NCBI GenBank assembly: GCA_041649175.1
Contig: JBAZNR010000001.1
Location: forward strand, 655,497-719,496
DNA length: 64,000 nucleotides
Direction: 5' to 3'
DNA from: Candidatus Omnitrophota bacterium
GTDB taxonomy: Bacteria > Omnitrophota > Gorgyraeia > Zapsychrales > JBAZNR01
The position numbers were made by a program, and so were the translations under genes. A model generated the notes under the pieces. The model did no database searches and was not told the origin of the DNA. It worked only from the letters and a program-made list of their open reading frames with translations. Position 1 is the first letter of the stretch, and every line of letters begins with the position of its first letter. This document shows, piece after piece, positions 46,801 to 64,000 of this stretch.

Positions 46801-46877
46801 CGCGGGGTGGAGCAGTCCGGTAGCTCGTCAGGCTCATAACCTGAAGGTCACAGGTTCAAATCCTGTCCCCGCAACCA
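46801..46877 (+). tRNA. initiator tRNA-fMet(CAT)
   Basis: CGCGGGGTGGAGCAG...CTCATAA...GGTTCAAATCC...CCCCGCAACCA. C1:A72 mismatch and near-identity to the E. coli tRNAfMet framework. Confidence 0.85.
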
Positions 46878-46882
46878 ACTTA

Positions 46883-46925
46883 ACCCTTTGTAGGCCTAGC
46901 GCTTGCAAAGGGTTTCGTTTTTGTG
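46883..46925 (+). terminator. rho-independent terminator after tRNA-fMet
   Basis: AACCCTTTG ... CAAAGGGTT stem followed by TCGTTTTTG. Confidence 0.55.
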
Positions 46926-47083
46926 CCTTCCGTCAAAATCCCGCCGTGCTAGCACTGTGCTAGCAAAATAAATTTTCCTTCGGAATCAGTGGAGCCAATT
47001 ACCCATTGTTTGATAATGGTGTATTATGTTTGAGGATTTTGGTATCATTGAATAAACCGCATTAACGAAAATGTGAGGACGAT

Positions 47084-47776
47084 TTGATCAGGGCAGGAGT
47101 TTTAACCAAAAGAGAGAAGCTTTGTTTAAAGTATCGCTGGGAGTTCTTGAGAAGAAACAGGGAATACCAGAAAGACTACCGCTACATCACTATAAATCTT
47201 AAAGTCACAGATATTATCCGCAATCAATATCCGAAACACCTTGTTGATGAGGCCTTAAGTATCCTTTCAAAATGGGATTTATTAAATCTTATCCCTCCCG
47301 GGTTGTCATTCAATGCTCTTCTTGAAAGTGACAAAAAGCTAAAGAGTTTTCACATGGATTCCTTGTTTGTGAATGATTTTGCCATTGATATGTATGACTC
47401 TCCGGATTCCTTGAGCCCAAAGGATCTCTACATTAAAGGTTCGCTGGTGAGGATATACGTTAATATGAGATTTCCTAAAGAGAAAATACTCGACGAGTTT
47501 GAGCTGTTAGTCGATAAGTGGCAGAAGCCATTGAAAAAGATGATGAAGAAAGTTTTTCATGATAAGCCGGAAAAAAGATTGCAGATCAGTCAATATGAAA
47601 AGTACTTAAAAGTGTATGATTCTCATAGAAAAGGAATGTCCATGGCCCAATTGGCCAAGAAATTTTATCCCGGCTATATCGAATCATCAGGGAAAGACTA
47701 TGCTGAGCGAAAAGTTTTAAGAGACATTAACGGCTGTCTGCGTTTGATTCACGGAGGGTACAAACAAATAAGGTAA
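47084..47776 (+). CDS. element-encoded putative transcriptional regulator (N-terminal WEFLRRN-EY-DY motif, C-terminal HTH-like)
   Basis: 230 aa. KYRWEFLRRNREYQKDYRY N-terminal motif seen in mobile-element regulators. C-terminal GMSMAQLAKKFYPGY resembles an HTH. Confidence 0.4.
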   Translation: MIRAGVLTKREKLCLKYRWEFLRRNREYQKDYRYITINLKVTDIIRNQYPKHLVDEALSILSKWDLLNLIPPGLSFNALLESDKKLKSFHMDSLFVNDFAIDMYDSPDSLSPKDLYIKGSLVRIYVNMRFPKEKILDEFELLVDKWQKPLKKMMKKVFHDKPEKRLQISQYEKYLKVYDSHRKGMSMAQLAKKFYPGYIESSGKDYAERKVLRDINGCLRLIHGGYKQIR

Positions 47777-47869
47777 CCACCTTGTTTGTCAATGACACAC
47801 GTTGTTTGGTCAAGTAAAGTGATCCTGTAACCACAAGTTGCAGGATTTTTTTATTTTATCGAGGAGGAA

Positions 47870-48190
47870 GTGATGATCAAGCTAACAGAAATTGAGATTG
47901 TGCCAGTAAGACCCAATAAGGGGTTGGTTGCATTCGCGTCGTTTATTCTCAATGATTCGTTTTTTATCGGCGATGTGGCCATTTACACGCGCATCGATCA
48001 GCCCGGATACAGGCTGGTTTATCCGGTGAGATATTTAGTCACCGGATTAAGAGTCCATTGTTTTAAACCGATTCATAAATCGGCGGCGGATGATATTGAA
48101 AACCAAGTCAGCCGTTACTATGAAAACTTGATTGAGAAAGCGAAGAAGACGGAAGGAACACCTCATGATCGATTATCAGAAATTGATTAA
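47870..48190 (+). CDS. SpoVG-like nucleic-acid-binding protein
   Basis: 106 aa. LTEIEIVPVRPNKGLVAFASFILNDSFFIGDVAIYTRIDQPGYRLVYP parallels the SpoVG core (ITDVRI..V...G..KA.ASI.LD..FVV.DIRVI). Confidence 0.5.
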   Translation: MMIKLTEIEIVPVRPNKGLVAFASFILNDSFFIGDVAIYTRIDQPGYRLVYPVRYLVTGLRVHCFKPIHKSAADDIENQVSRYYENLIEKAKKTEGTPHDRLSEID

Positions 48191-62169: not shown

Positions 62170-62192
62170 AGGGCTATTCTCTCCAGAGAAAT

Positions 62193-62363
62193 ATGCCGGA
62201 TGACTTATTCGATGAGTTCATGGAATATGATTTCACGATGGGTGCGGACGTCGTGAAATGCCCGCATTGCGGGGCCGATGTGCTGTGCAGTTTGTTTTTC
62301 GATAACGAAGTCGAATGCCCGGAGTGTGGGAAGAAGTTTCGAAAGGAGGGGAAAGATTCATGA
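62193..62363 (+). CDS. 56-aa zinc-ribbon protein (CPHC-x17-CPEC)
   Basis: MPDDLFDEFMEYDFTMGADVVKCPHCGADVLCSLFFDNEVECPECGKKFRKEGKDS. Below the ORF-track cutoff. Its stop overlaps the next gene's ATG (ATGA). Confidence 0.45.
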   Translation: MPDDLFDEFMEYDFTMGADVVKCPHCGADVLCSLFFDNEVECPECGKKFRKEGKDS

Positions 62364-62845
62364 AAGATCTACTCGACAAGCTATCAACCTATAACCTGTT
62401 TAACTACCTTTTTCCCGGTGTTGTTTTTGTTGTTCTGGGCGAAGCGATAACTGATTACTCTTTTGCTCAGCAGGATGTTGTTTTAGGGTTCTTTTTGTAC
62501 TATTTCATTGGACTTGTGGTCAGCAGGGTTGGATCTCTTGTTGTCGAGCCACTGCTGAAATGGATATCATTTCTTAAATTTGTGGATTATAAAGATTATG
62601 TCGCCGCCACTAAGAAAGATGAAAGAGTCGAGCTTTTATCAGAAGTGAATAATACGTATCGTACATTATGTGCATGTTTTGGTTTGCTTGCTCTGCTTAA
62701 AGTGGTCGAAGTTTTGGGAAGGAAGTTTTCAATCCCTCAAGGATGGGAGCTTTTTATCCTCGTGTTTGCTTTGCTGGTTATTTTCTTGTTTTCGTACAAG
62801 AAGCAATCCGCCTATGTTAAGAAACGAGTAGAGGCTAACAAATAG
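62360..62845 (+). CDS. 4-TM membrane protein, unknown function
   Basis: 161 aa. The track ORF starts at 62315; the internal ATG at 62360 gives translational coupling to the zinc-ribbon ORF. Four hydrophobic helices. Confidence 0.5.
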   Translation: MKDLLDKLSTYNLFNYLFPGVVFVVLGEAITDYSFAQQDVVLGFFLYYFIGLVVSRVGSLVVEPLLKWISFLKFVDYKDYVAATKKDERVELLSEVNNTYRTLCACFGLLALLKVVEVLGRKFSIPQGWELFILVFALLVIFLFSYKKQSAYVKKRVEANK

Positions 62846-62865
62846 GATCAAATAGCGAGGTTATT

Positions 62866-63948
62866 ATGGCAAATAAAGCGAAATTCACTTTTTTCAATGT
62901 CGGTCAGGGCGATGCAACCTTGTTGGAGTTGCCATCGGGACAATATATGCTCATTGACAACAAGGGAGGAGGAAAAGTTGATGTACGAAAGTATTTAAAG
63001 ACTATTCTCCCCAAAAAGGACGATAAATATTTTTTGAATTATTTTATGCTAACGCATGCCCATGTGGATCATGTGGGGTCTGTTAATGAATTGTTTGATG
63101 ATTTTGAAATAGGGGAAATTTGGTATACAGGGTTTGAATTTAAGAAGAAGGAAGAAAAAGATTTGCCCGAGCAGTATAAGCAGTTTTTAAAGAAAATTAA
63201 GGAGCGCGAGAAAAAGTATTCGGATAAGGATATCGCCGTAGAGAATGATTTGATTAATTTGCAGATAGGTGATGTCAAATTTGAATTCATGGCGCCTCCA
63301 ACGCGTGAGGTATGGGATAAGCTTAAAGAGTCAAAAGAAATTAAATCTTATTTGCAGAGGTTAGAAGAAAGTGTTGAAGAGAGTGCCAAAAAATCACTAT
63401 CTGATCTTATTCATGTGGGTTCAATTATTTGTCGAATAACCTACATGAATTCAAGTGTTTTGATTACGGGGGACGGGGAGTTATTGACGTGGAAGTATTG
63501 GATTATGCCGAAGTTTTCGCGCAGTTGCTTTTCGAAATTGCTCCATGCGTCCCATCATGGTTCAAAAGGATTTTTTATCTCTCAGTTTGATTGTGCTAAA
63601 GATGAAACTTTTGATGAAAATACCGATGGGTGCTATACCGATGGCTTGCTGTCAATCTCCCCATCAATTGTTGTTGTGACAAATAAGACTAAACCCGGAG
63701 ATAAAGATCACGAGAGCCCGCCCAATGAATATGCATTGAAACTTTATGCATCGTTCAAGAATGTGAACAGAACTCTTAAGTTTACGAGTGACGGTTCTAT
63801 CCAATATGTTATTCCGGATGAGCAGATTAGTGCATTAAATATTGATTCTGATAAAAGGTTTGCGGTGGACTCTTCGTCGGAAAAAGCTTCTACAACTTTT
63901 GAGAAACCGAGAAGCCCGGCCGTACTATTCCCCAATCGATTCGGATAG
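62866..63948 (+). CDS. standalone ComEC-type metallo-beta-lactamase-fold hydrolase (putative nuclease) with about 150-aa C-terminal extension
   Basis: FTFFNVGQGDATLLELP (ComEC-MBL signature) and HAHVDHVGS (HxHxDH). Further His/Asp motifs (LHASHHGSK). No TM segments. Confidence 0.7.
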   Translation: MANKAKFTFFNVGQGDATLLELPSGQYMLIDNKGGGKVDVRKYLKTILPKKDDKYFLNYFMLTHAHVDHVGSVNELFDDFEIGEIWYTGFEFKKKEEKDLPEQYKQFLKKIKEREKKYSDKDIAVENDLINLQIGDVKFEFMAPPTREVWDKLKESKEIKSYLQRLEESVEESAKKSLSDLIHVGSIICRITYMNSSVLITGDGELLTWKYWIMPKFSRSCFSKLLHASHHGSKGFFISQFDCAKDETFDENTDGCYTDGLLSISPSIVVVTNKTKPGDKDHESPPNEYALKLYASFKNVNRTLKFTSDGSIQYVIPDEQISALNIDSDKRFAVDSSSEKASTTFEKPRSPAVLFPNRFG

Positions 63949-63952
63949 AAAT

Positions 63953-64000
63953 ATGTTTAGCAAAGAGGAACAAGATGCGATTGAAGAATTTTTTAAAGGG
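63953..64000 (+). CDS. hypothetical protein, 3'-truncated at window end
   Basis: ATG at 63953 five nt after the MBL gene stop. MFSKEEQDAIEEFFKG... runs off the window. Confidence 0.3.
   Translation, partial: MFSKEEQDAIEEFFKG

Follow-up and report, generated by a model that had tools for sequence, protein, structure and literature searches.

A probable self-replicating mobile element with defence cargo at the initiator tRNA gene of a Candidatus Omnitrophota bacterium

Genes and sites next to the initiator tRNA

We analyzed a 64,000-nt stretch of DNA (the window) from a Candidatus Omnitrophota bacterium; the enolase encoded in it is 74-82% identical to those of Candidatus Omnitrophota metagenome-assembled genomes (MAGs). 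The part considered here starts at a gene for initiator tRNA (tRNA-fMet), downstream of which every substantial open reading frame (ORF) lies on the plus strand. The DNA from 46833 to beyond 64000 is probably one integrated, self-replicating mobile element of a modular family that is widespread among the Omnitrophota. The left 5.9 kb of the element form a conserved core that encodes, in this order, a regulator, a SpoVG-like protein, a primase-polymerase (prim-pol)/helicase, an excisionase (Xis), an integrase (Int) and an XRE-family protein; the genes to the right of the core are considered below as cargo. Related loci and contigs are designated by L numbers and two related proteins by P numbers. 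The features of the core region are as follows (att, attachment site; HTH, helix-turn-helix; SF3, superfamily 3).

46801-46877, plus strand: tRNA-Met(CAT), initiator-type (ARAGORN and Rfam), serving as the left site, attL
46833-46877, plus strand: duplicated att block of 45 nt, from the anticodon loop to CCA, copied at the right site, attR, of related elements
46882-46914, plus strand: intrinsic terminator of the tRNA, a 14-bp hairpin and T-run, on the element side of the predicted crossover
46946-46965, plus strand: paired repeat GTGCTAGCA-CT-GTGCTAGCA, candidate arm-type integrase site (P' arm), ~69 bp past the tRNA
47084-47776, plus strand: Trans_reg_dom/RovC-like putative transcription regulator, 230 aa (PF20109, 4e-5; weak RovC_DNA-bd match)
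47870-48190, plus strand: SpoVG-like protein, 106 aa (PF04026, 1.8e-6, slightly under the cut-off)
48132-50540, plus strand: AEP primase-polymerase with helix-bundle, SF3 (D5-like) helicase and C-terminal domain, 802 aa (PF22763, 6e-27)
50441-50700, no strand: cluster of iteron-like TGTGAG/CTCACA hexamers, putative origin, reaching from the helicase gene's 3' end into the intergenic DNA
50935-51171, plus strand: HTH_17/excisionase-type (AlpA/Xis-like) protein (PF12728, 1.3e-6; TIGR01764, 2.6e-6; phrog_66)
51261-52451, plus strand: tyrosine integrase (PF00589, PF14659, PF22022)
52587-52772, plus strand: XRE-family HTH protein, 61 aa (phrog_8, 3.5e-12), last gene of the conserved core

The initiator marks of the tRNA can be read directly: a C1 x A72 mismatch (CGCGGGG...CCCCGCA-ACCA) and A11:U24. 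Two of the three canonical G:C pairs are present in its anticodon stem, as in all Omnitrophota homologues seen, and an Rfam scan of 46-64 kb returned this tRNA alone. Upstream of a neighbouring DivIC-like gene lies an intergenic short tandem repeat, GCTGAAA x4 (46450-46484).

The 802-aa protein is a putative replication initiator and helicase. Translation probably starts at the ATG at 48165, because the homologues are 784-793 aa long and align from residue 12. Its first 300 residues match the NrS-1 prim-pol and the primase of SaPI5 PriRep5 (7e-32 with the single sequence); a profile of 46 homologues searched against the PDB hit SaPI5 PriRep5 (7OLA) at 1e-67 and NrS-1 at 3e-63. The DxD residues D98 and D100, the Walker A residues G487, G490 and K493 and the Walker B residue D534 are invariant in the 46 homologues. 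The helicase half gave no match in the PDB, Pfam or NCBIfam by sequence alone and was identified by fold search only. The AlphaFold2 (AF2) model of the protein (pLDDT 84.9) matches the NrS-1 N300 and C-terminal regions, the African swine fever virus (ASFV) PrimPol, the poxvirus D5/E5 helicases, SaPI5 PriRep5 and SaPIbov1 Rep, and its matches to primase-SF3 helicase fusions span both halves; since the model aligns with such fusions, the label of prim-pol/D5 primase-helicase is upheld. Over 3,400 proteins are similar to the primase-helicase, the nearest ones being from Omnitrophota. In curated collections the primase domain occurs in temperate Firmicutes phages (~40% identity) and the helicase half on small plasmids of Methylobacterium, Methanothrix and cyanobacteria (~30% identity).

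Both small proteins encoded upstream recur in relatives. The 230-aa regulator is 85-93% identical in L178, L180 and L189, and a protein of 351-376 aa takes its place in L082, L084 and L087. In the window and in L082-L088, whose prim-pols are 75-88% identical to that of the window, the SpoVG-like ORF comes before the prim-pol gene and overlaps its start; in protein P0075 the SpoVG-like part is fused to the prim-pol. The SpoVG-like protein may be a conserved accessory of the replicon, e.g. one that binds the origin or single-stranded DNA. As to the hexamers TGTGAG/CTCACA, 9 of the 12 copies in the whole window fall inside the 260 bp of 50441-50700, and 7-10 copies occupy the equivalent position in L082, L084, L085 and L087. 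Because the iteron origin of the Staphylococcus aureus pathogenicity islands (SaPIs) sits directly downstream of rep (PMC9371898), we read this cluster, by analogy, as a putative replication origin.

A metagenome scan with the window integrase yielded 80 related loci, in most of which an Xis-like gene lies upstream of int. The Xis-like ORF of the window has its probable start at M19 (50989). The catalytic set of the integrase is complete (R212, H324-x-x-R327, H350 and Y360), and the core ORFs are all full length. Wherever a contig extends to the tRNA, the relatives of the integrase (42-96% identity) are accompanied by tRNA-Met(CAT). Since even distant integrases (42-48%) directly adjoin a convergent tRNA-Met, specificity for tRNA-fMet is a trait of the whole integrase clade. 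L237 and L242 contain full and partial tRNA copies ~5 kb apart. Past the integrase and the XRE gene, the DNA similarity of the window core to L085/L178 and L247 stops at 52754-52777.

An earlier note on this DNA had listed the tRNA-fMet gene with its terminator, followed by co-directional genes for a prim-pol/D5 protein, an AlpA-type Xis, a tyrosine integrase and an XRE protein. It had put the integrase 4.4 kb from the tRNA, and it reported that the window holds no copy of the tRNA 3' end and does not include the right end of the element. Each of these observations was borne out: all the genes lie where the note had them, the integrase starts 4384 bp past the tRNA, and the window ends inside the cargo. 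No second copy was found in the window either of the tRNA 3' end (25 nt, <=3 mismatches) or of the 45-nt tRNA half (<=9 substitutions), and searches of the window for the arm motif and for direct repeats in general did not find an attR. Because the crossover would lie in the anticodon loop (see below), the extreme 3' end of the tRNA was the wrong probe for attR.

Attachment sites in related elements

Five attR-type junctions with the 45-nt 3' half of the tRNA were found downstream of a related integrase (in L085/L087, L187, L196, L204 and L213), and two of the elements concerned are bounded on both sides. One is the first element of ENA contig k141_2187721 (composed of L087 and L086, with L085 as its JGI twin), in which enolase, DivIC and tRNA-Met are followed by a core with Int and a prim-pol 75% identical to that of the window, by ~14.6 kb of cargo and by a partial tRNA. 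This element is bounded by a full and a partial tRNA, and its cargo therefore lies between the integrase and attR. After the partial tRNA come an IS200 element and a second core, 83-93% identical at the DNA level to window positions 46833-52754. The partial tRNA (L085 8106-8150) is the exact 45-nt 3' half, starting from the anticodon loop (CTCATAA...) and lacking a 5' half; it is followed by the same terminator hairpin as in the window, and the DNA similarity between the window and L085 begins at 46833.

The other is L187, a complete 9.2-kb element with the tRNA at 3297-3373, Int at 7009-8166, a type II restriction-modification (R-M) system and a partial tRNA at 12486-12530; it codes for a 710-aa protein, small ORFs, Xis, Int and the R-M system only. 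Partial tRNAs lie 8.6, 5.4 and 1.8 kb past the integrase in L196, L204 and L213, respectively. Thus attR is visible in 4 of the 80 integrase loci (L187, L196, L204 and L213). At 5/5 junctions, what precedes C32 has no relation to the 5' half of the tRNA, so that the block of identity starts at the anticodon loop, and this left edge points to a crossover in the anticodon loop.

The paired repeat GTGCTAGCA occurs once in the window, where chance would give 0. The same pair is found ~69 bp past the tRNA or partial tRNA in L085, L087, L184 and L189, and in L085 also ~118 bp upstream of the partial tRNA. L187 has GGCTAACA/GGATAACA pairs on both arms, and the pairs elsewhere are GTGCTAACA in L196 and GGTACCC in L204 and L213, i.e. 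the arm motif differs with the type of element. We infer that these paired repeats are arm-type integrase sites. The terminator and the GTGCTAGCA pair were also considered as native host sequence, given that L007 has both and no module; this reading was rejected, as partial tRNAs inside tandem arrays are followed by the same sequence and the motif is not constant from one element type to another. By analogy with L085, the attR of the window element is predicted to read CTCATAACCTGAAGGTC...CCGCAACCA with no 5' half of the tRNA, preceded ~118 bp before by GTGCTAGCA-N2-GTGCTAGCA.

Several further observations concern the tRNA-fMet site. Elements pile up there in tandem, the terminator and arm repeat of the next element coming directly after the partial tRNA that closes the previous one (L085/L086/L087 in k141_2187721, L187 12486-12661, L196 11522-11654 and L213 4138-4268). 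The MAG contigs L002, L004 and L082 end at the site or shortly past it. The T-arms of the tRNA-fMet sequences show compensatory changes between species (window 46833-46877 versus L002-L050); the version CACAGG...CCTGT is common to several, not all, loci with a window-type core, and it is present without a core in L008. This pattern is compatible with a tRNA 3' half supplied by the element.

Exchange of cargo and recombination modules

The core is more conserved between hosts than the chromosome next to it. Nucleotide identity to the window is 67-71% for the flanking ftsH and enolase genes and 84% for the core in L082, 68-69% and 85-93% in L180, and 74% and 87% in L189. Overall, these cores are 84-89% identical to that of the window and the adjacent genes 66-74%, and the core is 12-19 points more alike between hosts than the flanking genes. 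The module is absent from several relatives that have the tRNA-Met. In the nearest species representatives (enolase 74-82%), the genes past tRNA-Met differ in every case, and hence no conserved right flank can be defined. In L082, the same core (prim-pol 88%) comes after enolase, DivIC and tRNA-Met, and a type I R-M system takes the place that the window cargo has behind the integrase. Past the related integrases the cargo is different at almost every locus, and at every locus examined with tools it is defence:

L176: Avs2
L183: RadC, type I R-M and PtuA-like ATPase
L184/185: AbiE, RadC and type I R-M
L247: UvrD and type III R-M
L196: Mokosh-like helicase
L187: type II R-M
L082: type I R-M

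In the window the genes past the core are the following (MBL, metallo-beta-lactamase).

52927-53631, plus strand: RadC-like JAB protein (PF04002, 4e-38; NF000642, 8.5e-70), overlapping the start of the SNF2 gene
53625-56507, plus strand: DrmD-like SNF2 helicase (PADLOC DrmD, 7e-213)
56526-58529, plus strand: type III R-M methyltransferase, Mod (PADLOC MTase_III, 5e-211)
58532-61432, plus strand: type III R-M restriction subunit, Res (PADLOC REase_III, 3.5e-287; PF19778, PF04851)
61492-64000, plus strand: 6A-MBL-like cassette, continuing past the window end, with the next four lines as its parts
61492-62169, plus strand: membrane protein, 225 aa
62315-62845, plus strand: PDC-M48A (PDC-M48A match, 1e-64)
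62866-63948, plus strand: MBL-fold protein (6A-MBL_enzyme, 3e-16; 59 bits against a cut-off of 220)
from 63953, plus strand: start of a Cap2-like E1/E2 gene (cap2_3, 2.6e-39; 135 bits against a cut-off of 320), cut by the window end

RadC is a recurrent first cargo gene, located downstream of int also in L179 (94%), L183 and L184/185. In L183 and L184/185 it stands directly before type I R-M operons, which suggests a recurrent association of RadC with R-M on these elements. Mod and Res are adjacent, as is characteristic of a type III R-M system. The SNF2 gene was also considered as part of a DISARM system. It scores 701 bits with NCBIfam DISARM_DrmD_b, under the cut-off of 950 bits, and this assignment was ruled out: DrmA, DrmB (DUF1998) and DrmC are absent, and the neighbours are the type III Mod and Res.

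The Cap2-like gene continues on Logan contig L001 (3.2 kb, with the cassette at 1700-3226), and the full-length protein, P0121, has 568 aa. The same gene order, together with a JAB gene, is present in L256 and L257, and on Logan contig L257 the cassette lies, at 75% DNA identity, beside genes of a type IV secretion system (T4SS). A small ORF was also seen within the cassette of the window.

A shift in G+C content, which the earlier note had proposed as a check, is present in one part of the region and absent from the other. The cargo (52801-64000) has a G+C content of 0.398, below every 5-kb window of the host (0.430 +/- 0.007, minimum 0.416), and the core, at 0.439, is host-like. At the boundary of the two, in the intergenic region between XRE and RadC (52801-52866), there are tandem repeats, AGCCAGAGTCAC x2.8 and AGTCCAGTACT x3.3, which could mark a junction of cargo exchange. 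As attR does not appear in the window, we place the cargo inside the boundaries of this copy by analogy: with no att site within 52.8-64 kb, and given the layout of the relatives, RadC, the SNF2 helicase, the type III R-M system and the 6A-MBL-like cassette would all lie between its att sites.

The recombination module is exchanged as well. In L084 and L094 the same replicon is accompanied by a large serine recombinase that adjoins a miaB-like gene; L084, a 6.8-kb version, lacks a tyrosine integrase and cargo, and no tRNA was called in it. L090-L093 pair the replicon with a different serine recombinase; type I R-M, Abi_2, TIR and patatin genes are found there too.

L084 13054-14754: large serine recombinase
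L094 14184-15869: large serine recombinase
L090 7607-9325: large serine recombinase

The recombinase stop overlaps the start of the miaB-like radical-SAM gene in both L084 and L094, which suggests that this version integrates into the 5' end of the miaB-like gene.

Some relatives are decayed or rearranged. In L246 (2513-3296) tRNA-Met is followed only by integrase residues 246-383; L180 (5287-5520) keeps the native tRNA and terminator, and its element begins at the arm repeat, with no element-derived tRNA half; L007 (11604-11790) has an element-type terminator and arm repeat and no core genes. The tRNA-fMet site is a hotspot across the phylum. Even relatives that lack the prim-pol core have genes of the defence or mobile type directly past tRNA-Met: type I R-M in L008 (11802-21272), and LexA-like and YgjP-like genes in L003 (12039-14381), where the paired repeat is another one (TGGCAC x2). 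The cargo of a related element in L087 includes, at 15069-22382, three consecutive ~920-aa paralogues with RNase_H_2 and DDE_Tnp_IS66 domains, an unusual tandem of very large transposase-like proteins.

Interpretation and comparison with known elements

An integrative, defence-carrying element is present at the initiator tRNA gene, and it is probably self-replicating. A possible cycle is as follows. The integrase would recombine the chromosomal tRNA gene with an attP that carries the 3' half (45 nt) of tRNA-fMet; with strand exchange in the anticodon loop, the working tRNA would owe its 3' half and its terminator to the element. The integrase would have its arm-type sites in the paired 9-mers of either arm, and excision assisted by Xis would give a circle, which the primase-helicase would replicate from the iterons, as in the SaPI Pri-Rep replicons. 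Everything between integrase/XRE and attR would be exchangeable cargo, here RadC, the DrmD-like SNF2 gene with the type III R-M system and the ubiquitin-type system resembling 6A-MBL.

The earlier note had taken the locus for a P4-like satellite that carries defence genes. The part of this claim that stands is the integration at tRNA-fMet with defence cargo, given that attR lies past the defence genes in the relatives; the part that does not is the kinship with P4 or with satellites, since there is no homology to P4 and no packaging genes were found. Nor does the gene set deserve the name of a P4 core: the primase is an NrS-1/SaPI5-type AEP protein, not a homologue of P4 alpha, and Int is unlike P4 int. 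Searched against the P4 genome, the window proteins resembled no P4 gene (best tblastn E-value 0.02); the best E-value was 2.0 for the 802-aa protein and, for Int, 0.27 at a place outside the int gene. A P4-like satellite was rejected on this direct comparison. Genes for sid, psu, delta and epsilon had no Pfam or PHROG match among the core and small cargo proteins up to 64 kb, and neither terS, capsid, ppi/cpm nor other packaging-redirecting genes were found in 46.8-64 kb or in the complete relative L187. A viral origin was not supported either: among the 2.9 million contigs of IMG/VR there is no close relative, only distant single-domain matches, and the matches in the phage collection cover only the N-terminal primase (~40%).

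P4 is known as a carrier of defence hotspots. The window element shares with it the integration at a tRNA gene, the set of int, an AlpA-type regulator and a large primase-helicase, and a layout of candidate arm repeats, paired and flanking the attP core, like that annotated for P4. It differs, besides the points above, in that int does not adjoin the tRNA but is separated from it by 4.4 kb with the whole replication module, and in that the window family appears to cross over at the anticodon loop, not at the tRNA 3' end. A crossover in the tRNA anticodon loop is used by the integrases of HP1 and mycobacteriophage L5; there, too, the duplication covers the tRNA from its anticodon loop to its 3' end, and the element restores the 3' half. 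The target in the window family is, unlike theirs, the initiator tRNA, and the edge of the identity block is what indicates its crossover point.

With the SaPIs and other phage-inducible chromosomal islands (PICIs), especially SaPI5 (PriRep5, 7OLA), the element has in common an integrase, an excisionase/AlpA-type HTH protein and regulators, a fused AEP primase and SF3 helicase initiator with an iteron-like cluster (of putative function here) immediately downstream, and a small size. Accessory genes of SaPIs and PICIs can be anti-phage. The differences are that neither terS, a packaging or capsid-redirecting module nor a known helper phage was found for the window element, that the sequence similarity to SaPI5 is limited to the N-terminal primase (~290 residues), with the helicase alike by fold only, and that the host is an Omnitrophota bacterium, the integrase is distal to the tRNA and the cargo dominates the element. 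The NrS-1 primase-polymerase (PDB 6A9W and others) belongs to the same AEP clade and has the helix-bundle domain, but the window element is not a phage, and its protein has another C-terminal region and comes from another host phylum.

Pipolins are self-replicating elements with tRNA-derived direct repeats and a small core plus an exchangeable defence module, in which integrase swapping changes the target (PMC11551731). The window family resembles them in the tRNA-derived repeats, the small core with exchangeable defence cargo and the integrase swapping; it differs in its replicase, an AEP prim-pol/SF3 helicase instead of a primer-independent PolB (no PolB was found here), in its target, the tRNA-fMet anticodon loop, and in its host range. 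More generally, integrated mobile genetic elements that occupy tRNA genes and encode a tyrosine or serine recombinase are the typical carriers of prim-pol genes (Kazlauskas et al. 2018, PMC5862659). The element thus falls outside the P4-like satellites and the PICIs, as no packaging module was found, and outside the pipolins, as there is no piPolB. Its mechanism, judged by analogy, would be most like that of the SaPI replicons, and its organisation resembles that of the pipolins.

Several points weigh against one integrated, self-replicating element or temper it. The window contains no attR, partial tRNA or second arm motif; the G+C content of the core is host-like; transfer functions (relaxase, T4SS or packaging) were not seen, and any route between cells is conjectural; the iterons and arm sites are assigned their roles from position and conservation; excision and a circular form of this copy are extrapolated; and the decayed or rearranged relatives (L246, L180 and L007) could mean that this copy is immobilised. 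The last point leads to an alternative in which the element was once mobile and is now fixed, its attR deleted or decayed, as a domesticated defence locus. Such decay in relatives and an attR not seen within 17 kb agree with this view, but the core ORFs are full length with intact catalytic residues, and a relative has 14.6 kb of cargo before its attR, so that 11.5+ kb is not unusual; we consider fixation unlikely, though worth keeping in view. It is also conceivable that the mobile element is the 5.9-kb core only, from the tRNA to XRE, and that the R-M and 6A-MBL genes form a separate, adjoining chromosomal defence island. That would account for the end of similarity to the closest cores at 52754-52777 and for a drop in G+C that starts only past the core; a cargo-free 6.8-kb replicon with a serine recombinase does exist (L084), and the variable region past tRNA-Met in L008 holds R-M genes with no core in the ~9.5 kb read downstream. 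Against it, an att copy is found neither between XRE and RadC nor anywhere else up to 64000, attR lies past the cargo, not past Int, in every relative with a visible attR, and RadC recurs past Int in several elements, which makes this division of the locus quite unlikely.

A phage satellite of the PICI/SaPI or P4 kind, induced and packaged by an Omnitrophota helper phage, would have the observed layout of int, xis-alpA, regulator, fused pri-rep and downstream iterons, which is that of the SaPI5 type, and the absence of genes for autonomous transfer would imply a need for a helper in order to spread. In the core and cargo, however, no homologue of terS, capsid, ppi/cpm, sid, psu or delta was found, nothing matches P4, IMG/VR holds no close relative, L187 is complete with no more than the genes listed above, and the database relatives of the helicase C-terminal domain are on small plasmids; a helper-dependent satellite is accordingly improbable. 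The earlier note had named an ancestral, non-mobile chromosomal region, its position next to the tRNA being a coincidence, as the reading that would overturn its own. The lack of an att repeat in the window and the host-like G+C of the core speak for such a region. Yet the core is more similar between hosts than its flanks, by the 12-19 points given above, the module is missing from other relatives, occurs elsewhere in tandem bounded by partial tRNAs and with other recombinases at other sites, and its cargo varies between loci, and with these observations an ancestral region is scarcely credible. A single integrated element extending from 46833 to beyond 64000 is the reading that we prefer.

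A full-text search on Omnitrophota mobile elements, and what was read of a recent Omnitrophota genome paper, gave no matching description, and the family appears to be an undescribed, distinct one of a well-known kind. P4, PICIs and pipolins have already taught the general lesson that defence hotspots reside on small integrative replicons. What the family adds is a tractable case of exchange among replication, recombination and cargo modules. The Omnitrophota are abundant, mostly uncultured and nano-sized bacteria whose mobile elements and phage defences have, to our knowledge, hardly been described, and a family that can be delimited by its att core, candidate arm sites, putative origin and replicase gives a handle for finding defence islands and horizontal transfer in this phylum. 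Its compact prim-pol/SF3 replicons could become vectors for organisms that lack genetic tools. On a broader hypothesis, to which we give about even chances, the window element is one copy of a phylum-wide Omnitrophota family of small prim-pol/SF3-helicase replicons with a conserved SpoVG-like partner, possibly satellites or plasmid-like episomes, which exchange their recombination modules (a tyrosine integrase at the tRNA-fMet anticodon loop, or else large serine recombinases, at miaB-like genes among others) and accumulate in tandem at tRNA-fMet. On the same hypothesis, the family would be the main vehicle by which defence systems are shuffled in these tiny-celled bacteria.

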